From Candidatus Aenigmatarchaeota archaeon (lineage in GTDB: Archaea; Aenigmatarchaeota; Aenigmatarchaeia; CG10238-14; WAMV01): a stretch of 64,000 bases of DNA. The DNA is taken from the NCBI GenBank assembly GCA_015522145.1, contig WAMV01000007.1:15470-79469 (forward strand). Reading direction: 5' to 3'. The stretch's first letter is position 1, and every line of letters starts with the position of its first letter. The translations under genes and the position numbers were made by a program. Of this stretch, positions 28,949-51,800 are shown in pieces. The notes below the pieces were generated by a model. It did no database searches and was not told the origin of the DNA. It saw nothing but the letters and a program-made list of their open reading frames with translations.

Positions 28949-29905
28949 ATGTGGTATATTAAGGCTAGAGAAGAAACTTTAGAAGAATTTGGAAAATCTC
29001 CTGAAGAAAGGAGTATAGGGGAGCTTATAGAATCTGCTGTAGTTATTGTTGATAAGCATGCAGGCCCCACAAGCCACCAAATAACGCAATGGACAAAAGA
29101 AATTTTTAACGCTAAAAAAGCTGGTCATGCTGGAACGCTGGACCCACAGGTAACAGGAGTTTTGCCTGTAGCTTTAAATGATGCAACAAAAGCTATGATA
29201 GTTTTGATGGGTCTGGATAAAGAGTATGTTGGAGTAATGCATCTACATAAAGAAGTTAGCGAAGGTGTTTTAAGGCAAGCCATGCAGAAATTTGTTGGAG
29301 AAATAATTCAAGTACCTCCAAAAAGGTCTGCTGTAGCAAGAAGACCTAGGAGAAAAAGAGTTTATGTATTTGATATAGTAGAAATGGAAGGAAAAGATGT
29401 TTTATTTTATGTTAAATGTGAAGCAGGCGTATATGTAAGGAAGTTAGTGCATGATTTGGGCCAAGCTCTAGGCATAGGTGCTCATATGACAGAGTTGAGA
29501 AGAACTAAAGCTGGTCATTTTGATGAAAAGCAAGCTAAGCCTTTAATCGAAATTAGAGATGCTTACGAAATTTGGAAAAGTGAAGGTGATGAAAGCATGT
29601 TAAAAGAAATTTTAATACCTATAGAGCATGCTATACCACATGTGAAAAAAGTGTTTGTTAAAGATACTGCTATAGCGCAAATATGTAATGGTGCCCCTGT
29701 TTACGCTAGTGGGCTCGTAAGAATACAAAAAGATATAAAGCCTGGTGAAATAGTCGGAATTTTTAGCTTAAAAAATGAATTGATTGCATTAGGCATAGCT
29801 AAAATGAGTGCAAAGGAAATGTACAATAAAAGTAGGGGAATTGCTGTAAGAACTGACAGGGTTATAATGAAAAAAGATGTTTACCCTGATTTCAGAAAAA
29901 AATAA
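28949..29905 (+). CDS. cbf5: tRNA/rRNA pseudouridine synthase Cbf5 (H/ACA RNP catalytic subunit)
   Basis: HAGTLDPQVTGVLPV TruB motif and C-terminal PUA domain. Confidence 0.85.
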   Translation: MWYIKAREETLEEFGKSPEERSIGELIESAVVIVDKHAGPTSHQITQWTKEIFNAKKAGHAGTLDPQVTGVLPVALNDATKAMIVLMGLDKEYVGVMHLHKEVSEGVLRQAMQKFVGEIIQVPPKRSAVARRPRRKRVYVFDIVEMEGKDVLFYVKCEAGVYVRKLVHDLGQALGIGAHMTELRRTKAGHFDEKQAKPLIEIRDAYEIWKSEGDESMLKEILIPIEHAIPHVKKVFVKDTAIAQICNGAPVYASGLVRIQKDIKPGEIVGIFSLKNELIALGIAKMSAKEMYNKSRGIAVRTDRVIMKKDVYPDFRKK

Positions 29906-29937
29906 AGTTTAAAAAATCAACCAAAGCAAATTAAAAT

Positions 29938-29967
29938 TAGTCTCAAGGTCTGATAGCAAGATGATGA
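29938..29967 (+). ncRNA. Box C/D-like guide element in the tRNA-Ser 5' leader: 12-nt guide, CUGA (D'), 7-nt spacer, AUGAUGA (C') K-loop
   Basis: 29938-29950 is a 13-bp complement (11 Watson-Crick, one G-U, one C-G) of 30013-30025, which covers anticodon stem, loop and intron start. The D'-N7-C' arrangement matches a K-loop. Confidence 0.35.
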
Positions 29968-29982
29968 GCACTGGCTTTGCAT

Positions 29983-30130
29983 GCCCGGGTGGCGGAACCA
30001 GGCTAACGCGCCGGCCTTGAGACTACCATGAGAATGTTGGCTTGACCCTGAAAAACATGATGATAAGGAGGTGAGTCGAGAAAGCCGGTGCCCCTTACGG
30101 GGCGTGTGGGTTCAAATCCCACCCCGGGCG
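29983..30130 (+). tRNA. tRNA-Ser (anticodon UGA) with ~61-nt intron at the canonical 37/38 position (30022-30082)
   Basis: The acceptor stem GCCCGGG/CCCGGGC, the T-arm GUGGG-UUCAAAU-CCCAC, the long variable arm and the anticodon loop CUUGAG^A were folded by hand. Discriminator G. No CCA encoded. Confidence 0.85.
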
Positions 30131-30171
30131 TAGAAATTTTAGCTATCTAAAGAAAGTTAAATTTAAATCTC

Positions 30172-30753
30172 GTGGAATTATATTTAATGGAAAAAATAAC
30201 CTGCAGCTATTGTGGCAGAAAGTTTGATAATGAAAATTCTTTAAAACAACATAAACAAGCCAAACACCCCAGCGAGTTCCAAAAAGAAATAGAAAACAAA
30301 ATTAAAGAGCATACACAAAGAAGGCAATTAATCAGCATAGCTAAGTATTCTGTAGCTCTTTTAATTCTAGCTATAGCAGCTTTTTACTTACCAACACTTA
30401 TCCAAATTAAGTATTACCCACCAACAACTATTGAGGGACATGTGGAAGCTTATCCTCCAGCTAGAGTTGTAAAAGAACCTATACCAGAACCTATACAAAA
30501 ACATATTCTGGAGCATGTACCGACTAGCTTTGGAAACAGACCTGGCGTTCTAATACAATATAATTGTGAAAAGTTTGATTGTGCTCCTGATTTAATTGTT
30601 AAACTGGAAAACTTGACAAGATTTTATGAGTATTTGTACGTTGCTCCCAATCCTAAGATAGATGCTAAAATTGCTCTAACAAAATTTGGACAGATATTAA
30701 TTTTGGATGATTATGACGAACAAAGAATAAGGGAATTTATAGAAAGTTTTTAA
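30172..30753 (+). CDS. Membrane-anchored protein with N-terminal cytoplasmic C2H2 zinc finger and His-rich extracytoplasmic domain
   Basis: CSYCGRKFDNENSLKQHKQAKH C2H2 finger, one TM, then EGHVEAY...QKHILEHV. 24 nt upstream of copB. Confidence 0.4.
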   Translation: MELYLMEKITCSYCGRKFDNENSLKQHKQAKHPSEFQKEIENKIKEHTQRRQLISIAKYSVALLILAIAAFYLPTLIQIKYYPPTTIEGHVEAYPPARVVKEPIPEPIQKHILEHVPTSFGNRPGVLIQYNCEKFDCAPDLIVKLENLTRFYEYLYVAPNPKIDAKIALTKFGQILILDDYDEQRIREFIESF

Positions 30754-30777: not shown

Positions 30778-32922
30778 ATGGAACATTCCCATCATGACCA
30801 TGCTCATCATATGGAAGAATTTAAGAAAAAATTCATTATAGCAACTATACTAACGATACCAGTTCTTTTACTTTCAGAAACTATACAGCTTTGGCTGGGC
30901 TTTAGCTTTCAAATTCCTTATCAAAAATATGTTGTTCTTGCTTTAAGCTCTATTATTTATTTCTACGCAGGAATGCCTTTCTTGAAAGGTAGTTATAATG
31001 AATTGAAGGCAAGACAGCCAGGCATGATGACACTTGTTGCAAGCGCTATAAGCGTAGCTTATTTTTACTCTGTTTTTGTTGTGTTTACTGGTAGAGGTAG
31101 GGAATTTTTCTGGGAGCTAGCAACGCTTATAGATGTGATGCTTCTAGGTCATTGGATTGAGGCTAAAAGTGTTTTAGGAGCAAGTAAAGCTTTAGAAGAA
31201 TTAGCAAAGTTGATGCCAACCTACGCTCATCTAATCAAAAATGGCGAAGTTGTGGATGTAAGTGTAGAAGAGTTAAAGGTTGGTGATATAGTTTTGGTTA
31301 AGCCTGGGGAAAAAATACCTAGCGATGGTGTTATCATAGAAGGTTCTTCTTTTGTAAATGAAGCTTTACTAACTGGCGAGTCCAAACCTGTTAGCAAAAA
31401 GGAAGGTGATAAAGTTATAGCTGGTTCTATTAATGGTGAAGGAAGTTTAAAAGTTAAGGTAGAAAAAACTGGAAAGGATATTTACCTTGCCCAAGTAATG
31501 GAACTTGTTAAGCAAGCTCAGCAAAGCAAAAGCAGAACGCAAGATTTAGCTAATAAAGCAGCTTCCCTGTTGTTTTATGTTGCATTAATTTCTGGTATTA
31601 TTACTTATTCTGTTTGGAGTTTCTACGGCATGCCAGATGCAGCATTGGAAAGGACAGTAACAGTTTTAGTAATTGCATGCCCTCATGCTCTTGGCCTGGC
31701 TATTCCTCTTGTCGTTGCAATTTCTACAGCTATAACAGCTAAGCAAGGAATACTAATAAGGAATAGAAAAGCATTTGAGGAAGTTAAGGATGTTGATGTT
31801 GTTGTTTTTGATAAAACTGGTACGCTAACTCTTGGAGAGCTAGAAGTTAGCGATGTCTGGAGTAAGATTGATGAGAAAGAATTGCTTAGCTATGCTGCAA
31901 GCCTAGAAGTTCATTCTGAGCATATTATCGGAAGGGCAATAGTTGATTATGCTAAGAAAAAAGGCATAGAAATTAAACAAGTTAATGAATTTAAAGCCAT
32001 TCCTGGAAAGGGAGTCTTTGGCATCATAGATGGTAAAGAGATTTATGTGGGAAGTGAGGAATTGTTAAAAGACCTGGAGCTCCAAGAAACAAACGAAAAA
32101 ATAAAAGAATGGCAGAGCAAAGGAAAATCTATAATTTTTGTTGTTGTTAATAAAGAAGTAGTTGGGGCATTTGCTTTGGAAGACAAAATAAGAGAAGAGT
32201 CTTTGCAAGCAGTTGAAAAACTTAAGGAAATAGGAATAAAAGTTTACATGATAACAGGAGATGCTGAGGAAGTTGCTAAAGATGTGGCTACAAGGCTAGG
32301 AATAGACAATTTCTTCGCTAGAGTATTACCAGATCAAAAAGCAAACAAAATAAAAGAACTTCAAGAAAAAGGCTATAAAGTTGCCATGGTTGGTGATGGT
32401 ATAAATGATGCTCCAGCCTTAATGCAGGCTGATGTTGGTATAGCTATTGGCGCTGGCACAGATGTGGCTATAGAAAGTGCCGACATAATATTAGTAAGAA
32501 ATAATCCTCTGGATGTTGTTAAAATAATTAAAATAGCTAGAAGTGTTTACTCTAAGATGGTTCAGAATTTATGGTGGGCAGCAGGCTATAACATTATTGC
32601 AATACCTTTAGCTGCAGGAATACTAGCTAATTATGGAATAATAATTTCTCCAGCCATAGGAGCTATTTTAATGTCTCTAAGCACCATAATAGTTGCAATA
32701 AATGCGCAAACATTAAGAAAATTGGAGCCAAAAACTGAGGTAAAGGAAGTGGTTTATAGGGATGTTGTGTGTGGTATGAATGCAGAAAACTCTGACATTA
32801 AGTTTGAGTATGAAAACATAGTTTACCACTTCTGTTCTGAAAACTGCTTAAAAGAATTTAAGAAAAATCCTAAAAAATACTTAAAGGGTGGTTCTGAGCA
32901 TATGCACGCCCATCATCATTGA
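30778..32922 (+). CDS. copB: Copper-exporting P1B-type ATPase (CopB-like) with N-terminal His-rich stretch and C-terminal YHS/TRASH domain
   Basis: MEHSHHDHAHHM, CPH transmembrane motif, DKTGTLT, GDGINDAPAL. C-terminal CGM...HFCSENC TRASH/YHS. Confidence 0.85.
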   Translation: MEHSHHDHAHHMEEFKKKFIIATILTIPVLLLSETIQLWLGFSFQIPYQKYVVLALSSIIYFYAGMPFLKGSYNELKARQPGMMTLVASAISVAYFYSVFVVFTGRGREFFWELATLIDVMLLGHWIEAKSVLGASKALEELAKLMPTYAHLIKNGEVVDVSVEELKVGDIVLVKPGEKIPSDGVIIEGSSFVNEALLTGESKPVSKKEGDKVIAGSINGEGSLKVKVEKTGKDIYLAQVMELVKQAQQSKSRTQDLANKAASLLFYVALISGIITYSVWSFYGMPDAALERTVTVLVIACPHALGLAIPLVVAISTAITAKQGILIRNRKAFEEVKDVDVVVFDKTGTLTLGELEVSDVWSKIDEKELLSYAASLEVHSEHIIGRAIVDYAKKKGIEIKQVNEFKAIPGKGVFGIIDGKEIYVGSEELLKDLELQETNEKIKEWQSKGKSIIFVVVNKEVVGAFALEDKIREESLQAVEKLKEIGIKVYMITGDAEEVAKDVATRLGIDNFFARVLPDQKANKIKELQEKGYKVAMVGDGINDAPALMQADVGIAIGAGTDVAIESADIILVRNNPLDVVKIIKIARSVYSKMVQNLWWAAGYNIIAIPLAAGILANYGIIISPAIGAILMSLSTIIVAINAQTLRKLEPKTEVKEVVYRDVVCGMNAENSDIKFEYENIVYHFCSENCLKEFKKNPKKYLKGGSEHMHAHHH

Positions 32923-33605
32923 AGGAACTGATTAATTACAGTCTCAAACGTTTGGTAAGGTTGAGCTCCAACTATTTTTACACCATTTATGAAGAATGTT
33001 GGTGTTCCTTGGACACCGTAGCTTACACCATCTTGATAATCTTTTTGTACTTCTTGAGCATATTTGCCAGAATCTAAGCAGGAGCTAAATTGCTCCAAAT
33101 CCAAACCAAGTTCTGCAGCGTAGTCTTTGAATTTTTGAACTCCCTGAGTTGACCATTCAGATTGTCTTTCAAACAATATGTCGTGGTATTCCCAATACTT
33201 ACCCTGCTCTCCAGCACACTCTGCTGCCTCAGCAGCTTTTTGAGCATATTGGTGGAAGTTTAAAGGAAAGTCTCTATAAACAAGTTTGACCTTGCCTGTA
33301 TCTATGAAATTTTGTTTGATTAAAGGCAATGTTTGTTGCCAGAATCTCCTACAGAATGGGCATTGGTAATCGCTAAACTCTATGATGGTTACAGGAGCGT
33401 TTGGATCGCCTAGCACAGGATCGTCATCAGCACTAACTTGAACTCGAGTAGGCTGTTGTTTAGGCACTTCTTTAGGAATCGCTTGATCTGCTGTGTCTGT
33501 GGGTGTTTCTGTGGGTGTTAATTGAGAGTATATACTAAAAGTCGCAACTAGATTAATAGCCACTAATATTGTTAAGACTATTAACAAAGTTTCATAGCGT
33601 CTCAT
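32916..33605 (-). CDS. DsbA-like thioredoxin-fold thiol:disulfide oxidoreductase (membrane-anchored)
   Basis: CPFC active site, N-terminal TM anchor. Confidence 0.7.
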   Translation of the reverse strand: MRRYETLLIVLTILVAINLVATFSIYSQLTPTETPTDTADQAIPKEVPKQQPTRVQVSADDDPVLGDPNAPVTIIEFSDYQCPFCRRFWQQTLPLIKQNFIDTGKVKLVYRDFPLNFHQYAQKAAEAAECAGEQGKYWEYHDILFERQSEWSTQGVQKFKDYAAELGLDLEQFSSCLDSGKYAQEVQKDYQDGVSYGVQGTPTFFINGVKIVGAQPYQTFETVINQFLQ

Positions 33606-33642
33606 AAATTAAATATGGGGAAGGATTTATAATTGTTATTTA

Positions 33643-34332
33643 ATGTTCAACAAACACAACTTGTTAAAAATATTATTTGTAACCATATTACTAATGGTTT
33701 TTCCTTTGTACGTCCAGAATGCTATATGGTTATGGCAAAACACAGATTTGCTGATAGTGAATAACTGGCTTCTTGTTGTTTTTTACGTTTTTCTATTTTT
33801 GTTAATATTGATGTTTTTAAGACCGGATAAAAATAAGGGCATGTGGAAAAAGGTCAAGGGAGTTTATGTTGCCTACATAGTTGCTTTGTTTACAGAAATG
33901 TTTGGAATACCTCTAACTTTATACTTCTTTTCTTTTTCTTTCGCGAATTTTGAGCCTGTTGAAACTCTGTTTGCGTTAGAGTTTGAATTTATGGGTAGTA
34001 AGATGAGATTATTAGCAACCAGTGCCATAGCTGGTGTAATTAGCTTGCTATCTGCTATAATCATAGCTATTGCATGGAAGCAAATTTATAACGCTAAAGG
34101 AAAGTTAGTTACTGATGGTATTTACCGATTTTCCAGACATCCTCAATACTTCGCTCTTATTCTAATCATTGCCTTCTGGACAATGGCATGGCCGACTGTT
34201 TTAACTATAACCTTGGGTACGATTTTGATTGTAAGCTATGTATGGTTAGCAAAGCAAGAAGAAAAGGAGCTTGAAAAGATTTTTGGTAAGAAATATTTAA
34301 GGTATAAAAAAACTGTTCCAATGTTTATTTAA
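33643..34332 (+). CDS. Isoprenylcysteine carboxyl methyltransferase (ICMT/PEMT) family membrane methyltransferase
   Basis: LVTDGIYRFSRHPQYFA and EEKELEKIFGKKYLRYKKTVPMFI motifs. Confidence 0.6.
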   Translation: MFNKHNLLKILFVTILLMVFPLYVQNAIWLWQNTDLLIVNNWLLVVFYVFLFLLILMFLRPDKNKGMWKKVKGVYVAYIVALFTEMFGIPLTLYFFSFSFANFEPVETLFALEFEFMGSKMRLLATSAIAGVISLLSAIIIAIAWKQIYNAKGKLVTDGIYRFSRHPQYFALILIIAFWTMAWPTVLTITLGTILIVSYVWLAKQEEKELEKIFGKKYLRYKKTVPMFI

Positions 34333-34452
34333 TGGCATGCTTTATTATCTCTAAATTGCAGGAATTGTGTTCTCTACACCATTCTTCACATTTCTGAGCT
34401 AACTCAAAAGATTTATATTTATTAGAACATTCTTCACAAACAAATATGCCAT

Positions 34453-34962
34453 TTATCTCCTTGACCGTTTTATCCTCCTCTTTCTCCTAACCACCTTAGT
34501 TGTTCTAGCAGGCTTGGAACTGCTCATTGCAACAATTAGTATGAGGAGTAATAAAAATAAGAAGAAAAACATTCCAAAATACCAGAATCCCATACCCCAG
34601 CCCCAATATGGATACATCATCATACCACCCATCATGCCATAAGTTCCATAGTTGTTTACTCCTTCAAAAGTATATTGATTTTCCCCACAATATATTCTCC
34701 TAGCCATCAGTATATGCATTTGTCTTAAGCTTTCAGAGCCTTCGCCTCCCATCATCTGATCCATTATTTCATGAGCTTGGCCGGGATGCATTAATTCCAT
34801 GTAATAATCGCCTATAGCCTCAAGCTGCTCATCTGTAAGCTGAGAGCAGGGTACTTGCTGATTTATTATTTGTTCTATCTCAGTTACGTTCGCATCCGTA
34901 TGAGCAAAAACACTAGGTAGAATAGTTAAAAGTACCACCAATGTTATTGCGATTCTTTTCAT
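34453..34962 (-). CDS. Secreted Met/His-rich protein with C-terminal TM anchor, putative metal (Cu) binding
   Basis: Signal peptide, then HPGQAHEIMDQMMGG and MMGGMMMY Met clusters. C-terminal TM plus basic tail. Confidence 0.4.
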   Translation of the reverse strand: MKRIAITLVVLLTILPSVFAHTDANVTEIEQIINQQVPCSQLTDEQLEAIGDYYMELMHPGQAHEIMDQMMGGEGSESLRQMHILMARRIYCGENQYTFEGVNNYGTYGMMGGMMMYPYWGWGMGFWYFGMFFFLFLLLLILIVAMSSSKPARTTKVVRRKRRIKRSRR

Positions 34963-34994: not shown

Positions 34995-35459
34995 TTAGGC
35001 CCTTATAAAGGTAAATATGTTGCTGCCATCATAAGCATATATGGTAAACAAAGAGGTTTTAATTCCGGACATTCCTGGTGAGCCAGGAGGCATTCCAGGC
35101 AATGCTATTCCTTTTATGTTTGGTTTTTCCTCAAGTAATTTATTTATGGCTTCTATAGGCACATGACCCTCAACAAAATAATTGCCTATTTTAACAGTGT
35201 GACATGACCAAAGATTTTGGGGAATTCCTAGTTCTGTTTTTATTTGGACTAGTTGTGCTTCATTAACCTCTACAGAGTTTACTTGCAATCCAAAACCTCT
35301 TAAATAATTTTCATAAAGCTTGCAACATCCACATGTTGGCGAATAATATATCGTAATCGTATCAGAATAATTTGCTACAGGTCTAAAGAATTGAAATGAA
35401 AACATTACAGCCAAAAATATCAAGATTCCTAATGCTGCATATAGGGTTTTGTCTTTCAT
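34995..35459 (-). CDS. CopG/DUF411-like periplasmic metal-binding protein
   Basis: YYSPTCGCC motif matching the CxCC signature I recall for CopG/DUF411. Signal anchor. Confidence 0.5.
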   Translation of the reverse strand: MKDKTLYAALGILIFLAVMFSFQFFRPVANYSDTITIYYSPTCGCCKLYENYLRGFGLQVNSVEVNEAQLVQIKTELGIPQNLWSCHTVKIGNYFVEGHVPIEAINKLLEEKPNIKGIALPGMPPGSPGMSGIKTSLFTIYAYDGSNIFTFIRA

Positions 35460-35932
35460 TCTTTACAGCACTCCAGCATCTTTTTCAGTATTTTTACAAA
35501 ATTTCTGTTTGAAAATCCTATTTTTTCTGATTTAAATTTCTTCAGGTTTAACTGCCAAAACAATGAATAAAGGTAAAATGCGTCCTCAAAAGCCTCTTTG
35601 GCCATTTTCTCATTTCCTTTGGAAAGGTACTTGTTACCTGTTTCTATTAGACGCATAGATGCTGCTAAAAGATGTTTAGAAATACACCAAACCTCGCCTT
35701 CTGGATCTTTTACTATTTCTTTCATAAACTTCTTTCTTATCTTTCTAACATTTTCTATAAGGTCTAAGTAAATTTTCTTATTTGTTTTTATGGCGGTAAA
35801 GAAAAGATGTTCCTCTATAGATATCAAATTCATTAACCCAATGCTTAAGTCTTCTTCTAGCGATAGGTCTTTCATCTCTTTCATTTTGTTAACTTTTTCA
35901 AGCAATTCCTTAGCGTTTTTAGCTCTTTTCAT
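35456..35932 (-). CDS. Hypothetical cytoplasmic protein
   Basis: 158 aa, no family recognised. Confidence 0.35.
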   Translation of the reverse strand: MKRAKNAKELLEKVNKMKEMKDLSLEEDLSIGLMNLISIEEHLFFTAIKTNKKIYLDLIENVRKIRKKFMKEIVKDPEGEVWCISKHLLAASMRLIETGNKYLSKGNEKMAKEAFEDAFYLYSLFWQLNLKKFKSEKIGFSNRNFVKILKKMLECCKE

Positions 35933-35935
35933 TTT

Positions 35936-36406
35936 TCACCACCAAAACAAAAACAATATGCTAACCAAGGTTAGTGTTAAAAGTGTTATAACAATAGATT
36001 GGTAGCCTATTTTTTTGGGAAGTGATTTTGCAACATTAAGCACTAATAAAGTTAGAATAGCACCTATCAGGATGGATAAAGTAAGCCTGTCTATCCCAAA
36101 AATCATATGATAAGAAACTATACCCGCATAATAGAATGGAATTATTGTCAAGCCCAAAGCTAGGAAAACTAATAAAACTGTTAATCCTGGATTTTCGTTT
36201 TTGTTTATTACTCTGTCCATCCATAATGCCGTTGAAATTATAAAAGCTCCTAACCACAAACCAACTATAGAATCATTAACACCATAAAATCTTGCAACCA
36301 TTACAGCTGTGCCAGTAGCAGCTGTGCACAATGGACAGTGAGCTAAGCTTGGTTGAGCTAAAAGCGTGCTCATCATTATTGCAAAAACAATTAAAGCAAT
36401 TTTCAT
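35936..36406 (-). CDS. Membrane protein with signal peptide and N-terminal HCPLC motif
   Basis: Likely start at the internal ATG at 36406 (MKIALIVF...LAQPSLA|HCPLC). Three to four TM segments. Confidence 0.4.
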   Translation of the reverse strand: MKIALIVFAIMMSTLLAQPSLAHCPLCTAATGTAVMVARFYGVNDSIVGLWLGAFIISTALWMDRVINKNENPGLTVLLVFLALGLTIIPFYYAGIVSYHMIFGIDRLTLSILIGAILTLLVLNVAKSLPKKIGYQSIVITLLTLTLVSILFLFWW

Positions 36407-36456
36407 GATAAAAAAGTGGTGTGAAACAACTTTTAAGGGTTGGTGTGAAACTAGTT

Positions 36457-36912
36457 TCACTTGGCTATTATTAGATTTGTCATACCTCTCCTTTTTCTTT
36501 CTATGAGGCCTTTTGCTTCCAAGCTGTCAAGGATTCTGGTAACTTTAGATTTGGAAAACCCTGTTTCTTTTATAATTTCGGATTGAAAAATTGCATTGCC
36601 AGACTTTTTTATTAGCCCAAAAACCTTTTTCTCATCTGGATTGAGCTTTGCTAGCTGCTTCTTCAGCTTTAAGGAAGGTGAGGTAAGAAGCAAATAAAAG
36701 CCTAAAGCTCCCAAAAGTGTGGAGATTGTTATACCTAAGTAAGTTTGTGGTGGAATGTAATCTTCATGAGGACAAGCACTTGCATTTGCATTGCAAACAT
36801 CTTCACAAATTTGAGAGGAGTAATAAACAATGCTACTGGTTGTAACATAAGTAAAGTAAAGAGTTATTAGGGCCATTACCATTAAAGTGTAGCCCAAAAT
36901 TGTGTTTTTCAT
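36457..36912 (-). CDS. Membrane-tethered winged-helix transcriptional regulator with Cys-rich extracytoplasmic loop
   Basis: TM1, then CEDVCNANASACPHEDY, then TM2, then a wHTH (IFQSEIIKETGFSKSKVTRILDSLEAKGLIERKRRG). Confidence 0.5.
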   Translation of the reverse strand: MKNTILGYTLMVMALITLYFTYVTTSSIVYYSSQICEDVCNANASACPHEDYIPPQTYLGITISTLLGALGFYLLLTSPSLKLKKQLAKLNPDEKKVFGLIKKSGNAIFQSEIIKETGFSKSKVTRILDSLEAKGLIERKRRGMTNLIIAK

Positions 36913-36934: not shown

Positions 36935-37258
36935 TTAAATTTTTTTCCAAACTGCTACTATTCCAGCTATTAAGAATGTGATAGCTAAAGGAAGAATGAT
37001 GAAGCCTGTGAATGGAGAAATTATTAGGAGGAATAAGGCGTAGATTAGTGTTATAGCTCCAACTACCCTCATCCACTTCTGCAAATAAAGCAAAACAACA
37101 AAAATTATGCCTATGCCTGTAAACAAATAGCTTATTAGCGCAATACCAGCAAAAATAACACCTATTAAGCCTAGATCCTTAAAAGCAAAGAAAAAGGTTG
37201 AAAGCGCTAATTGAATTATTATTCCTATAGCAGCTATTATCCAGCTGCCTTTTTTCAT
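36935..37258 (-). CDS. Small polytopic membrane protein
   Basis: 107 aa, three TM. Confidence 0.4.
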   Translation of the reverse strand: MKKGSWIIAAIGIIIQLALSTFFFAFKDLGLIGVIFAGIALISYLFTGIGIIFVVLLYLQKWMRVVGAITLIYALFLLIISPFTGFIILPLAITFLIAGIVAVWKKI

Positions 37259-37343
37259 TAAAGGAAATTTAAAATTGGGGTATATTTAACTTTTACGGAA
37301 ATTTTTATATCTTGCTAATTTGCCTATTAAATAAGGTGAAACT

Positions 37344-37928
37344 GTGAAAAGATTTGAATTGCCTCCTTTGCCTTATAGCTACGACGCTTTGGAACCAGTA
37401 ATATCTAGAAAAATAATGGAATTACATCATGACAAGCATCATGCAGCATACGTTAAAGGAGCTAATGTAGCCCTAGAAAAATTGGAAAAGGCTAGAAAAG
37501 GAGAAATGGAGATTAATGTAAGAGAGGTACTAAGAGATCTAAGCTTCAACCTAAATGGTCATATACTACATTCAATATTCTGGAACAATATGCGTCCTCC
37601 ACAAGAAAACAACAGGCCTGGTGGTGAAATAGAAGACCTAATAGTAAAGAATTTTGGCTCATTCGAAGCTTTCCAACAAGAATTTAGCAAAGCTGCTACA
37701 AGCGTAGAAGGTGTGGGCTGGACAATACTAGCTAAAGATGAAGAAAATAATCTGTACGTAGTACAAATAGAGAAACATAATTTAATGCACATAGCTGGCT
37801 TGAAGCCAATACTGGTAATAGACGTTTGGGAACATGCATACTACCTAGATTACTTGAACAAAAGAGCAGAGTACGTAAACAATTGGTGGCAAGTGGTTAA
37901 CTGGGATGATGTAGAGAAAAGGCTTTAG
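37344..37928 (+). CDS. sod: Superoxide dismutase (Fe/Mn family)
   Basis: LPYSYDALEP, HHDKHH and DVWEHAYY motifs. GTG start with AAGGTGA SD. Confidence 0.9.
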   Translation: MKRFELPPLPYSYDALEPVISRKIMELHHDKHHAAYVKGANVALEKLEKARKGEMEINVREVLRDLSFNLNGHILHSIFWNNMRPPQENNRPGGEIEDLIVKNFGSFEAFQQEFSKAATSVEGVGWTILAKDEENNLYVVQIEKHNLMHIAGLKPILVIDVWEHAYYLDYLNKRAEYVNNWWQVVNWDDVEKRL

Positions 37929-48740: not shown

Positions 48741-50132
48741 ATGCGCAGCCTCAGTTTATCTAATATCTTGTTTTACGGTAGCGCTCTAACAATTTCCTTT
48801 CTGATATTGACTTTCATTTCACCCTTTAATCTAACTCTATTTGTCCAATATTATTTATCAAGTAGACCTGACATAGTCCTCATGGGATTAATTGTAATAG
48901 TGGCATTTTCTTACTCCTTATCGTATTTCATGGAATATTTAGCAAAGAGATTTGAATTCTTGTTAAAACCTTATAAAAATTTGTTTGTTGTCAGCTCTGT
49001 TGTGTTTTACATAATTTCATTTGTTTTAATGTTAGGCAACACATCTTACAACATTTTTTCTTATGTTGAGATGAACAACTTCATTTATACACTTCTCAAC
49101 TTTATTCTTTTAGCTCCTATTATAGCATATACATCCCTCTTTCTAGTCAACATTTTTGCATCAATAAAAGACAATACCATCAGGACATTTGGATCAGGCG
49201 GTCTACTAGCAGGCTTATTTTCAATGGGTTGTCCTACATGTGGTGCATTACTCTACTCACTAATAGGATTGAGTGCGGGCTTAACCTTATTTCCATTAAA
49301 CGGGCTAGAGATAAGGCTTGTCTCTCTTGGTCTCTTAGTTTATGCTTCCACAAAAATAACTCCTAAATTGTGTAAAGAATGTTTAGCTCCTAGAAGAAAA
49401 AACCAATTTGAAATAGTCGGCACAAGACCTTTGTTTGATAGTATAACAGACAAAATAATTCTAATTTCCTTTGTTGCCATGATTGGTTTAATAGGTTTTA
49501 ACCAACTACAAATACAAATGATAAACTCTTCTATTACATCACTTTCTTTAGCAGCTTTCGGAAGAGTTTCGGGAGCAAATTTAGATAATGTTGATGTTTA
49601 TAAAGTAAGTTCAACGGCTATGGCTATAGCTACGGTATTTCCAGAAATAAAGTCTGTATCTAGTATAGATGAAATAGCAAGTATTTTAATTCCAACCGGG
49701 ACCCCAGAATATAGTGAAGCTTTAGGAGGCATCACTTTTGATGATATTCCAAATTCATTAACATATTTATCCCGATGGTATTTCCAATTGAAAGATGAAG
49801 TAAAGAATAACGATCCCGAAACATGGCAGAGATACTTGAAGTTGGCAGCAGCTCCAAGAGGCATTAGCTGTGAGTTTTGTTGTGGTGTAGGACCTCAAGG
49901 TATAACTAGTGATGGAAACTTGAGATGTGGATGCTCGCATAATATTGCGTTACAAGCTTTAACATTAGGATTAATGAAGTACACGGATTATAGTGATGCT
50001 GAAATATTAAGAGAAGTGTTAAGATGGAAGGCGGCTTTCTTCCCAAGAGGAATGGTTAATCTAGCTGCCCAGACAATAGGCCAAGATCCCTCCCAGTTGG
50101 GTTCTCTTCCTGGAATGGTTGGTGGTTGCTAA
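48741..50132 (+). CDS. Polytopic membrane protein with intramembrane GCPTCG motif, Cys-rich C-terminal domain and ...LPGMVGGC* terminus
   Basis: About 8 TM. CPTC sits in a TM segment. CEFCCGVGP and CGCSHN clusters. The terminal motif is shared with the next ORF. Confidence 0.45.
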   Translation: MRSLSLSNILFYGSALTISFLILTFISPFNLTLFVQYYLSSRPDIVLMGLIVIVAFSYSLSYFMEYLAKRFEFLLKPYKNLFVVSSVVFYIISFVLMLGNTSYNIFSYVEMNNFIYTLLNFILLAPIIAYTSLFLVNIFASIKDNTIRTFGSGGLLAGLFSMGCPTCGALLYSLIGLSAGLTLFPLNGLEIRLVSLGLLVYASTKITPKLCKECLAPRRKNQFEIVGTRPLFDSITDKIILISFVAMIGLIGFNQLQIQMINSSITSLSLAAFGRVSGANLDNVDVYKVSSTAMAIATVFPEIKSVSSIDEIASILIPTGTPEYSEALGGITFDDIPNSLTYLSRWYFQLKDEVKNNDPETWQRYLKLAAAPRGISCEFCCGVGPQGITSDGNLRCGCSHNIALQALTLGLMKYTDYSDAEILREVLRWKAAFFPRGMVNLAAQTIGQDPSQLGSLPGMVGGC

Positions 50133-50166
50133 AAATTTAAAAGGTATATAAACCATTTATATTGTT

Positions 50167-50406
50167 ATGAAAAGCAGGCAGAAGTTTGTTAGTGGCTGGG
50201 TTTTAATTCTAATTACATTAGTAATGATAACAATAACAGCTGTACAAGCTTATCAGTTAATGAACCTTCAGTCTCAAATTTTAACACTGTCCGAATCTTT
50301 AAAAGAATATAAGCCAGTCACGTCAACTTTATCTTCACCAGGTTCAAGCACTTCTCTCCTTCAGCAAAATTTACAAAATTTACCATCTATGGTAGGCGGT
50401 TGTTAG
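50167..50406 (+). CDS. Small single-pass membrane protein ending ...LPSMVGGC*
   Basis: 79 aa with N-terminal TM. The last 12 residues align with the C-terminus of the upstream protein. Confidence 0.4.
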   Translation: MKSRQKFVSGWVLILITLVMITITAVQAYQLMNLQSQILTLSESLKEYKPVTSTLSSPGSSTSLLQQNLQNLPSMVGGC

Positions 50407-50420
50407 AGAGGTGAATTAAG

Positions 50421-51800
50421 TTGAAAATGAAAAAACAAAAACTCTACTTTATATTTTTCGTTTCTATTCTTTTTGTTTTAGTCGTTTATAATTATTATTT
50501 GGCTCAACACACACAAACTCTAATTAATTTGGTTAATAGCCAAATCGAGGAGTTAAAAAAGCCCGTTAACTTAAAAATGATTATAATAGATGCCAATTGT
50601 GATGTTTGTTTCGATATAAAAGAGGTTGTAGATAACATTAGAAGTAATGAAAGAATAAACGTAACAGAAGTCGAAGTTTATTCTTTAACTGACAGTGATG
50701 TTAGAGCTCTAGTTTTATCATATTCCATAGATAGGCTTCCAACCGTGATACTAGAGGGTGAAATAGATAAAGTTCAGCTAGCAGGTTTTGAGAATAAAGG
50801 AAGCGCTTTAGTATTTACTGCTATAAACCCTCCCTACTACGATACTAAAAGTAAGAAAGTAGTTGGTTTAGTTAAAGCCATATACATAAATGCCAGTTAC
50901 TGTGATTTGTGTCGAGAAAATTATCAGACCATAGAATTTCTAGAGCAAAATGGTGTTGTTTTTGAATCTAAGCTTTTCTTAGATATAAACTCTTCACAGG
51001 CCCAACAAATAATAAACACATATAATTTAAAGAGTATTCCGGTGTTATTGTTATCTCAAGACATAGAAGCTTATAACATACAATTATCTGACTTAGGCCT
51101 AAATAAAGTGAATGATTTCTATATTGTCTATTCAGCACCACCTTATGTAGATTCTGAAAGTGGTGAGATTAGAGGCTTAGCTGAGCTTATTCTTTTGAGA
51201 AACAGTTCTTGCGACCAATGTTATGATGTTTCAATACATTCGGAGATTTTAAGAAATAGGTTTGGTGTAGCTATTATTAACGAAACTTATGTTGAAGTAG
51301 ATTCGGAATTTGGTCAACAACTCATTTCTAAGTATAATATAACAAAGATTCCAACGATCATAATTTTGGGTGATTTAGAACCATACACAGCTCTTAATAA
51401 TATATGGCCTAATGTGGGAAGCATTGAAAATGATGGAGCTTATGTTTTTAGAAATATGGATGCTTTGGGTAATGCTGTTTATATAGATCTAACGTTAAAC
51501 AAAATTGTTGGAGCTGAAGAAGTTAGAGAAATAGTAATAGCAGGTTCCGACTTCAACTTTACTCCCAACGAGATTAGAGTAAAAGTAGGTGAAAAGGTTA
51601 GAATAGTGTTTAGAAATGAAGGTGAAGTTGGACATAATTTGGTCATAGAAGGTTATAATATAGGAACTAATGTCATTCCGTCTGGGGCGACACAACCAAT
51701 AGAGTTTGTAGCAGACCAAGTAGGAGAGTTTGCATTCTACTGTAGTGTACCGGGTCACAGAGATTTAGGGATGGAAGGTTTGCTAATAGTTGAAGAGTAA
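50421..51800 (+). CDS. Secreted multidomain redox protein: three thioredoxin-like domains (CDVC, CDLC, CDQC) plus a C-terminal type-1 copper cupredoxin domain
   Basis: Each repeat has CDxC followed by a cis-Pro loop (RLPTVIL, SIPVLLL, KIPTIIIL). The C-terminal HNLVIE...FYCSVPGHRDLGM matches plastocyanin/azurin ligands. Confidence 0.6.
   Translation: MKMKKQKLYFIFFVSILFVLVVYNYYLAQHTQTLINLVNSQIEELKKPVNLKMIIIDANCDVCFDIKEVVDNIRSNERINVTEVEVYSLTDSDVRALVLSYSIDRLPTVILEGEIDKVQLAGFENKGSALVFTAINPPYYDTKSKKVVGLVKAIYINASYCDLCRENYQTIEFLEQNGVVFESKLFLDINSSQAQQIINTYNLKSIPVLLLSQDIEAYNIQLSDLGLNKVNDFYIVYSAPPYVDSESGEIRGLAELILLRNSSCDQCYDVSIHSEILRNRFGVAIINETYVEVDSEFGQQLISKYNITKIPTIIILGDLEPYTALNNIWPNVGSIENDGAYVFRNMDALGNAVYIDLTLNKIVGAEEVREIVIAGSDFNFTPNEIRVKVGEKVRIVFRNEGEVGHNLVIEGYNIGTNVIPSGATQPIEFVADQVGEFAFYCSVPGHRDLGMEGLLIVEE

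Follow-up and report, generated by a model that had tools for sequence, protein, structure and literature searches.

This analysis concerns a gene for a small membrane protein, here called REG, and a palindrome at its 3′ end, both found in a 64,000-nucleotide stretch (the window) of contig WAMV01000007.1 from a Candidatus Aenigmatarchaeota archaeon. The original prediction, made from the letters of the sequence, had read the open reading frame 36457-36912 as a transmembrane (TM) segment, a loop with the pattern C-x3-C-x6-C-PH, a second TM segment and a winged helix-turn-helix (wHTH), and had placed it in a copper island next to a CxxC membrane protein and near CopB. The list of open reading frames, hydropathy and Pfam bear out this architecture; the neighbours, the HCPLC membrane protein and CopB, are as stated, and the context recurs across DPANN phyla. 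The palindrome, a candidate operator, lies between REG and the gene for the HCPLC membrane protein and overlaps the REG stop codon. Positions of these and of all other features are collected in Table 1.

REG begins with MKNTILGY, which is followed by a hydrophobic stretch (sequence MKNTILGYTLMVMALITLYFTYVTTSSIVYYSSQICEDVCNANASACPHEDY...), and continues through TM1, the loop SSIVYYSSQICEDVCNANASACPHEDYIPPQTY, TM2 and a Lys-rich linker to ...FQSEIIKETGFSKSKVTRILDSLEAKGLIERKRRGMTNLIIAK. The loop motif is C36-x3-C40-x6-C47-P48-H49. The topology is based on a 19-residue Kyte-Doolittle scan and on charge bias. Between the TM cores the loop measures 35 residues, not the approximately 40 first given, and contains no Lys or Arg and four Asp or Glu; the N-terminus (K2) and the 25 residues past TM2 are Lys-rich. 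Each of the 109 homologues that were aligned is predicted to have two TM segments, defined as stretches of 19 residues or more whose Kyte-Doolittle mean is 1.6 or higher; the mean number of Lys plus Arg is 1.9 in the N-terminus of about 6 residues, 1.7 in the loop of about 30 residues and 7.5 in the 25 residues past TM2. Because of this positive-inside bias, and because the number of TM segments is even and the C-terminus is DNA-binding, the loop is placed outside, as had been predicted, and not in the cytoplasm.

The C-terminal wHTH was confirmed as well. Residues 92-149 match Pfam DUF7343 (PF24034) with 50.8 bits (cut-off 27.6; profile positions 3-60 of 62), and REG scores 36.6 bits against MarR_2 (cut-off 27) and 29.8 bits against MarR (cut-off 24.6) (PF01047 / PF12802). 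An AlphaFold2 (AF2) model built on the alignment of 109 sequences has a mean predicted local distance difference test score (pLDDT) of 84.5, with values around 90 for the winged helix (residues 92-150). It contains helices at residues 3-39 (TM1 being extended to residue 39) and 55-77, a short one at 79-88, and a winged helix of the order alpha1-beta1-alpha2-alpha3-beta2-beta3 (helices 92-103, 110-117 and 121-133; strands 107-109, 137-142 and 145-150). Foldseek matched REG to the DNA-binding domains of MarR, ArsR, HlyU and BlaI with root mean square deviations of 1.2-3 Å over 60-75 residues, and in a profile search of PDB sequences MarR proteins were at the top, with entry 8xt8 at 1.4e-5. None of the MarR dimerisation helices (alpha1, alpha5 and alpha6) is found in the AF2 model, the protein stopping after beta3 (residue 150 of 151). 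Should REG dimerise, the model leaves only the TM hairpin or the linker to bring this about.

A word-indexed search yielded 111 homologues of 112-187 residues, nearly all of 150-175, many of which align end to end and all of which (111/111) carry PF24034. Where they have names, these are MarR family regulator or uncharacterised membrane protein, and the named ones are from Pace-, Woese-, Aenigmat- and Micrarchaeota. When 1.84 billion representatives (50%-identity clusters) were searched exhaustively with a profile, there were 221 clusters at E<1e-30, 986 at E<1e-10 and 4386 at E<1e-3. A scan of one genome per species gave at least 582 relatives, and among the matches listed all are in DPANN-type metagenome-assembled genomes (MAGs); a few REG-bearing MAGs carry the depositor label Methanosarcinales. 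Conservation of REG extends over Aenigm-, Woese-, Pace-, Nano-, Micr-, Iain- and Altiarchaeota.

In the alignment of 109 sequences the invariant residues are C36, Q110, K121, R126, D129 and, in the wing, E138, R139 and R141-N146; C47, G7 and G71 are at least 90% conserved. Of the predicted Cys motif, which is present in REG exactly as described, C36 and C47 are the only loop cysteines conserved family-wide, and C40 is lineage-specific. The commonest loop is C-S-H-G-P-x-C-x-M-Y; C...C-P-(x)-H also occurs, and a minority is without His or Met. When 142 independent full-length representatives were examined, 137 had two TM segments and 136 of these at least two loop cysteines, 4-16 residues apart; in 82% of the 136 a His or Met stands either between the two cysteines or directly after them. 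Where one locus carries REG paralogues, wing and recognition helix are kept and the loops differ; one of the paralogue loop types, C-x3-C-x7-C-x4-C...H, resembles that of the window. Judged by sequence, such diversification of the loops is the course that sensor modules usually take. Two paralogues per locus or genome were seen in L013, L027, L048, L052, L054, L064, L065, L068 and L070, a pattern that suggests several inputs onto one operator type, or heterodimers.

The palindrome was found by enumerating gapped palindromes in the intergenic regions adjoining REG or ATPase genes. In the window, TGAAAC-NN-GTTTCA has a single exact match, where it forms part of a perfect 16-bp palindrome. For comparison a context set was used, which consisted of 79 REG-homologous loci with flanks of up to 8 kb (921 kb in total) and was searched by tblastn with the window's neighbours. 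This set contains 65 exact matches, as compared with 0.1 expected by composition and none in 20 shuffles. They are distributed over 62 of the 79 loci, the centre is TA at 59 sites, and 45 of the 65 sites are at most 120 bp from the REG gene; in several of the loci that lack an exact copy, a variant differing at one or two positions stands beside REG. The palindrome either directly follows the REG stop codon, whose TGA then contributes to the left arm in the window and no fewer than 8 other loci, or is found upstream of REG, between it and a divergent gene.

The association is also seen when the motif is taken as the starting point. Metagenome contigs were scanned for TGAAACTAGTTTCA-N14-20-GTTTCA without any protein information, which gave at least 120 stretches with at least 125 sites, and REG homologues were called by profile at E<1e-5. 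Among the sites listed, REG was present within 150 bp at 61 of 125 (49%) and on the same, often short, contig at 78; where a listed site had 700 bp or more of sequence to either side, REG was within 150 bp in 35 of 71 cases. No DNA-binding family other than REG, which is there at 74 of the 120 loci listed, recurs within 1.5 kb of the motif. An RNA hairpin or terminator is ruled out by the arms being only 2 nt apart, and a coding constraint by the occurrence of the motif also upstream of REG and at promoters without REG. By its sequence the palindrome has the form of a dimer-binding DNA site. Since its invariance across phyla matches that of the recognition helix and the wing, the sequences argue strongly that REG, as a dimer, is what binds it.

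The expectation of a palindromic operator was thus right as to its existence, and the palindrome is conserved throughout the family. It had been sought upstream of copB (30778) or of the zinc-finger gene (30172), and upstream of these two genes the family palindrome is absent within two mismatches. Inverted-repeat scans of the regions 29880-30200, 33590-33660, 34320-34470 and 37230-37360 gave nothing but AT-only palindromes, as is expected at 35% GC.

The palindrome has a preferred position relative to the following gene. In 93 of 222 candidate cases its centre lies 44-47 bp upstream of the downstream ATG, which is a sharp peak; in the window the distance to the ATG of the HCPLC gene is 46 bp. 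The TTATATA-like box of 45 homologous promoters begins at +16, counted from the palindrome centre, or at -28/-29 relative to the ATG, and a GTTTC half-site directly behind the TATA box, at exactly +25, is present in 15 of the 45 REG-locus promoters. The minus strand of the window reads GCC AAG TGA; GTGAAACTAGTTTCAC (36460-36445), ACCAACC, CTTAAAAG, T, TGTTTCA (36428-36422), CACCACTTTTTTATC and ATG (36406). In some cases (L007, L009 and L015) the palindrome is symmetric and shared by two divergent promoters. The archaeal TATA box is centred approximately 26 nt upstream of the transcription start. With this usual spacing, the operator-bearing promoters would be leaderless or near-leaderless, and the palindrome would abut the region of the TFB recognition element (BRE) and the TATA box.

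Table 1. Features of the window discussed in the text (positions count from the first nucleotide of the 64-kb stretch)
Feature	Position	Strand	Details
REG gene	36457..36912	-	151 residues, ATG start; two-TM hairpin, then C-terminal winged helix
TM1 core	36844..36900	-	residues 5-23; Kyte-Doolittle 19-residue mean 1.82
Extracytoplasmic loop	36739..36843	-	residues 24-58; proposed sensor
Loop residue C36	36805-36807	-	
Loop residue C40	36793-36795	-	
Loop residue C47	36772-36774	-	
Loop residue H49	36766-36768	-	
TM2 core	36682..36738	-	residues 59-77, includes G71; Kyte-Doolittle mean 1.83
Cytoplasmic winged helix	36463..36639	-	residues 92-150
Recognition helix			residues 121-133
Wing			residues 138-146, ERKRRGMTN
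REG stop codon	36457-36459	-	TGA, within the palindrome
Candidate operator	36445..36460		perfect 16-bp palindrome GTGAAACTAGTTTCAC; core TGAAACTAGTTTCA at 36446-36459
TATA-like box	36430..36437	-	CTTAAAAG; starts 30 nt upstream of the ATG of 35936-36406
Extra half-site	36422..36427	-	GTTTCA; directly past TATA box, 25 nt from palindrome centre
HCPLC membrane protein	35936..36406	-	first target gene; signal peptide, then A|HCPLCT motif
Helical protein	35456..35932	-	second gene; 158 residues, C-terminal CCKE; no Pfam match
DUF411 protein (CopG-like)	34995..35459	-	third gene; CGCC motif, N-terminal anchor; Pfam DUF411 4.4e-25
Met/Gly-rich secreted protein	34453..34962	-	fourth gene; C-terminal anchor; 32-bp gap to preceding gene
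CopB-type P1B ATPase	30778..32922	+	CPH, MSLST, His-rich N-terminus, C-terminal YHS; Pfam E1-E2_ATPase, Hydrolase, YHS
Membrane-anchored DsbA-like oxidoreductase	32916..33605	-	CPFC; Thioredoxin_4 3.9e-41, DSBA 2.5e-25
C2H2 zinc-finger protein	30172-30753	+	TM segment and DUF3105; 24 bp upstream of copB
Polytopic membrane gene	36935-37258	-	107 residues; stop 22 nt before REG ATG
tRNA gene	29983-30130	+	148 nt; upstream of the zinc-finger/copB pair
Second Cys-rich envelope cluster	48741-51800	+	three genes, without operator
Protein with M(V/T)GGC tail	50167-50406		

The operator of the window precedes a string of four genes, HCPLC, helical, DUF411 and Met-rich (36406 down to 34453), and not copB. 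The four genes are on one strand and tightly packed, the start codon of the helical-protein gene (35930-35932) lying 3 nt below the stop codon of the CPLC gene (35936-35938) and its 3′ end overlapping the DUF411 gene by 4 bp. The same string is present in the 97%-identical relatives L001 and L002, and the genes are presumed to form one operon. In an alignment of 35 HCPLC sequences A22, H23, C24, P25, L26 and C27 are invariant. As HCPLCT directly follows the signal peptide, the mature protein would begin with His-Cys-Pro-Leu-Cys, and from the sequence the N-terminal His together with the CxxC is a possible copper site; this protein matched no family in Pfam or NCBIfam and no fold in the PDB. 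The third gene has a precedent: in Vibrio parahaemolyticus copper induces copG, the gene of a DUF411 protein, as part of the CueR regulon (PMC12341060).

The link to copper is a general one. In 48 of the 79 loci a P1B ATPase is encoded within 8 kb of REG, often adjacent and on the same strand. From the full-length REG-linked ATPases 35 of 40 carry CPC, YN and MxxSS, which we take to be the Cu(I)/Ag(I) CopA signature of the standard P1B classification; one has CPH and MSxST, like CopB of the window. In at least 6 loci CopA is downstream in a same-strand gene string with the operator. The other neighbours in the window recur less frequently: DsbA-like proteins in 20 of the 79 loci, the HCPLC membrane protein also in 20, DUF411 in 14, the helical protein in 12 (placed after the CPLC gene) and the Met-rich protein in 6 loci besides the window. 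Clustering of the neighbours also brought out HMA chaperones (16 loci), cupredoxin-like proteins, DsbD_2-cupredoxin fusions and AhpC/TSA-redoxins as well as several Cys- or Met-rich families without a Pfam model. Other regulators were also seen in the islands, namely ArsR-like ones in 13 of the 79 loci and PadR-like ones with a C-terminal TRASH-like Cys cluster in 12 (e.g., L027 2870-3283); both are presumably cytoplasmic metal sensors acting in parallel.

The genes that directly follow operators are mostly without assigned function. Counted over all loci listed, the most frequent target is a polytopic, Met/Cys-rich membrane protein of 227 residues (69 sites), followed by a protein of about 220 residues with CEYCCG...CGCAHS...GGC (35 sites), REG itself where the arrangement is divergent (17 sites), small Cys-rich secreted proteins (11 sites) and a Cys-rich protein of 74 residues (6 sites). 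Further direct targets are DUF411, DsbA, redoxin, DsbD_2-cupredoxin and HMA proteins; for example, the DsbA-like gene is a direct target in L008 and L010. The 227-residue protein has many MxxGM and GKCCG motifs (e.g., L055 4087-4770 and L021 7231-7914; loci L003-L201), is without family assignment and is absent from the window; its sequence suggests that it may handle copper. The main operator targets F0 and F1 as well as the helical and the Met-rich protein gave no Pfam or NCBIfam match.

Other genes of the window deserve mention. A zinc-finger protein with a TM segment and DUF3105 is encoded just upstream of copB; it is possibly a further membrane-associated nucleic-acid-binding protein, and similar genes are found in a few other islands (L048 and L074; family 20 in 6 loci). 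The gene for a polytopic membrane protein that precedes REG is confined to the near-identical relatives L001 and L002 and may be co-transcribed with REG. The length of the tRNA gene indicates a long intron; it was recognised by Rfam with 43.8 bits (gathering score 29), and ARAGORN made no call. The second Cys-rich envelope cluster encodes a 463-residue fusion of a CPTCG membrane part with a CEFCCG...CGCSHN...MVGGC domain, a 79-residue protein ending in MVGGC, and a 459-residue protein with thioredoxin-like repeats and a cupredoxin-like C-terminus. The family of the CEFCCG...CGCSHN...MVGGC domain is the second most common operator target at other loci. A tail ...M(V/T)GGC ends several unrelated small secreted island proteins (L012 1412-2077, L046 6221-6475 and L025 8016-8234; in the window 50167-50406); it may bind metal or mark the proteins for processing.

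Taken as a whole, these sequences make it somewhat probable that REG is a one-component transmembrane regulator which acts on the palindrome and which with its outer Cys pair senses Cu(I)/Ag(I) or copper-driven oxidation. The hairpin, with both N- and C-terminus inside, would present the short loop with the Cys pair on the outer membrane face, and the MarR-like winged helix would probably sit in the cytoplasm as a dimer on the 14-bp palindrome TGAAACTAGTTTCA. The palindrome-bearing promoters would drive genes for extracytoplasmic copper and thiol handling. The signal would be Cu(I) (or Ag(I)) bound to the Cys pair, or copper-driven oxidation of the pair, and would shift TM2 and the linker helix such that the spacing or the availability of the two winged helices is altered. 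We infer the Cys pair as input site from sequence, and likewise the ligand, the transmission and the sign of regulation. A membrane-bound factor could plausibly get to its site on the chromosome, DPANN cells being very small, and co-translational insertion of the envelope targets would in addition hold the locus at the membrane.

With respect to the ligand, CueR coordinates Cu(I) linearly by two thiolates. By analogy, two cysteines in a flexible loop suit a Cu(I) bis-thiolate with His or Met as a third ligand; they suit equally a reversible disulfide. Sensing of Cu(I)/Ag(I) is ranked first because of the context of CopA, HMA, CopG and cupredoxin proteins and because of the flanking His and Met, and a disulfide switch second because only the cysteines are universal and because genes for DsbA, TlpA and DsbD_2 proteins are direct targets. 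The two readings may coincide, copper catalysing the oxidation of thiols.

With respect to the sign, unliganded REG would repress by occluding the BRE and the half-site past the TATA box, and the signal would release it; alternatively REG would bind constantly and activate in dependence on copper, as does CopR of Pyrococcus furiosus. Repression relieved by the signal is slightly favoured, since the site ends 8 nt before the TATA box, so that a wHTH dimer with its wings would cover the BRE, and since the half-site at +25 lies where transcription factor B (TFB) and RNA polymerase bind and the TATA boxes are near-consensus. The preference is kept slight because the P. furiosus CopR motif has the same position and the genes bound there are up-regulated by copper.

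There are several points that count against sensing of copper by REG as proposed here. The loci behind the linkage statistics were chosen for the presence of REG, and the chance rate of a P1B ATPase, a few percent per 16-kb window, was estimated, not measured, from genomes of about 1 Mb having one or two such ATPases. The copB gene of the window is without operator. As the TATA boxes are near-consensus, sequence cannot tell repression from activation. In the AF2 model the loop residues 40-54 are poorly modelled (pLDDT 56-68), and hence neither a metal site nor a disulfide geometry can be read from it. One REG subgroup (LGCFNNQECFAVE) has no His or Met near the Cys pair, and for this subgroup a bare disulfide switch fits at least as well as a metal site. 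Finally, the length of the linker between TM2 and wHTH differs by about 30 residues across the family, which weighs against rigid piston-like coupling; a changed packing of the hairpin dimer or a changed distance between the subunits is more plausible.

The strongest competitor, which is less likely yet deserves to be taken seriously, has the same regulator and the same operator, the Cys pair being not a metal site but a thiol-disulfide switch that reports the redox state of the envelope. The pair would be oxidised by the co-encoded DsbA or by copper or oxidant chemistry and reduced by partners of the TlpA/DsbD_2 type. This would agree well with the two cysteines alone being conserved in the loop, at a spacing of 4-16 and in some subgroups without His or Met, with DsbA, AhpC/TSA-redoxin and DsbD_2 proteins among the direct operator targets, and with the presence of DsbA in 20 of the 79 loci and in the window. 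Indeed, periplasmic cysteines and disulfides modulate ToxR, TcpP and CadC. However, REG is linked predominantly with Cu(I) ATPases, HMA chaperones, CopG-like and cupredoxin proteins, and the His or Met found next to the Cys pair in 82% of the representatives makes up ligand sets typical of Cu(I). Many of the source genomes, moreover, are from anoxic groundwater, where extracellular thiols would be reduced.

Rather improbable is a REG that binds the palindrome without being a sensor, the hairpin serving as an anchor or docking site and the Cys pair forming a structural disulfide. Its activity would then be set by a partner (as in CadC-LysP and TcpP-TcpH), by proteolytic release of the wHTH, or by tethering of the locus for co-translational insertion. 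A linker of variable length would agree with a tether, every target is a membrane or secreted protein, and partners or proteolysis are used by other transmembrane regulators (PMC10269533, PMC11323476). Yet no gene for a protease or a conserved partner recurs beside REG, the gene at 36935-37258 being present in close relatives only, and an outward Cys pair that is near-invariant over hundreds of divergent sequences, in loops that diversify between paralogues, fits a ligand or redox site.

It is very unlikely that the palindrome is the site of another factor or a non-regulatory element and REG a mere neighbour that regulates something else: the ArsR-like and PadR-TRASH regulators (13 and 12 of 79 loci) offer candidates in some islands, but are absent from most motif-bearing loci, whereas REG is the sole recurrent DNA-binding family near the motif (74/120 loci listed), the motif adjoins the REG gene at either end, and its invariance mirrors that of the recognition helix and wing. 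That REG is a soluble MarR-like regulator with an intracellular Cys site, its segments not being TM or its loop being cytoplasmic, is hardly credible, for although the topology is drawn from hydropathy and charge bias, both hydrophobic stretches are present in all 109 homologues together with a strong positive-inside bias, the AF2 model has two long helices, an even count of TM segments ahead of a DNA-binding C-terminus puts the loop outside, and the MarR dimerisation helices are lacking.

The proposed regulator resembles several known systems without being identical to any of them. In ToxR, TcpP and CadC outward-facing cysteine pairs matter for activity. As in REG, a single membrane-spanning protein links an outside input to promoter binding (concept in PMC10269533). 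ToxR and CadC have, however, an N-terminal wHTH of the OmpR/PhoB type, a single TM segment and a folded periplasmic domain, whereas REG has the hairpin first, then the loop of 35 residues and the wHTH last; Trans_reg_C is absent among the 16 Pfam hits of REG. Furthermore, ToxR, TcpP and CadC are bacterial, and REG is archaeal and would act at promoters with BRE and TATA box.

In the archaeal regulator ArnR the HTH is N-terminal and the TM helices are C-terminal. ArnR and ArnR1 of Sulfolobus acidocaldarius are membrane-bound one-component regulators that have been studied experimentally (PMC6396743), and, like REG, they are archaeal, membrane-anchored and DNA-binding. By its description ArnR is set apart from REG, since it controls archaellum and pili genes under starvation and has neither a Cys-loop sensor nor a metal context; its lineage is the Crenarchaeota, that of REG the DPANN. 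Under the definition that requires a DNA-binding domain and at least one predicted TM region (PMC10269533), REG is a transmembrane transcription regulator. The census in that paper counted 1,384 such regulators in 404 archaeal species, without mention of MarR, copper or DPANN. The view that membrane-bound regulators are poorly described in archaea was therefore too sweeping.

CopR offers a parallel in function and in promoter geometry. In P. furiosus it acts as repressor and activator and has a semi-palindromic motif directly upstream of the BRE at copper-induced promoters (PMC7830388). CopR (PF0739 of P. furiosus and CopR of Saccharolobus) shares with REG the copper-defence genes, the location next to copA and the same promoter geometry. 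However, CopR is soluble, combines an Lrp-type HTH with a TRASH domain for cytoplasmic copper, forms octamers and recognises TTNNCAWWWTGNNAA, whereas REG is membrane-embedded, has its cysteines outside and is predicted to recognise TGAAACTAGTTTCA; no TRASH, YHS or AsnC match was found for REG in Pfam at E<0.01.

In bacteria the kinases CusS, CopS and PcoS sense envelope copper and induce the envelope copper defence. Like REG they have two TM segments with the sensing segment between them outside, but they signal through a phosphorelay and have a folded periplasmic domain of about 150 residues with His, Met and Phe as ligands, whereas REG is without a kinase and, according to its sequence, would contact DNA itself. 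MarR of Escherichia coli leaves DNA after copper-driven oxidation of a Cys, and oxidised MarR (4jba) was among the Foldseek matches. REG shares with the MarR family the sequence and fold of the wHTH, but is without the dimerisation helices, and its reactive cysteines would be extracytoplasmic. For ArsR/SmtB, NCBIfam HTH_metalloreg gave 15.9 bits (cut-off 55), and there is no Cys or His in the REG wHTH. The CxCx4CxC site of CopY/BlaI is absent, REG having no Cys past residue 47, and BlaI matched only in its generic wHTH fold. REG as a canonical MarR, ArsR, CopY, CopR or ToxR is thus in each case ruled out by one missing defining feature.

A literature search found nothing on DUF7343, nothing relevant for COG2512 and nothing that links DPANN, copper and a membrane regulator. 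Transmembrane one-component regulators are already known; what is new is the REG architecture, the operator, the linkage to Cu(I) P1B ATPases and the mostly uncharacterised regulon. We tentatively propose, as a possibility somewhat short of an even chance, that REG and its operator constitute a pan-DPANN system in which a minimal sensor would read outside copper or copper-driven thiol stress, would set the occupancy of the operator without a relay and would control envelope proteins. Its regulon would include the HCPLC family, the 227-residue Met-rich family, the CEYCCG...CGCxH...GGC family and the CopG-like protein.

If this is true, the system would be a new archaeal module of envelope copper defence and the first predicted triplet of transcription factor, operator and regulon for DPANN, which are mostly uncultured and in which gene regulation is essentially uncharted. 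It would give Pfam DUF7343 a candidate function. The system is compact and directly testable, consisting of a protein of 151 residues, an operator of 14 bp, a fixed promoter geometry and a coherent regulon. If confirmed, it would open several uncharacterised Cys/Met-rich envelope families to study and supply engineering with a portable operator-regulator pair, and it would mean that archaea sense copper or thiol stress in the envelope with a single membrane-spanning DNA-binding protein, where bacteria use two-component systems.

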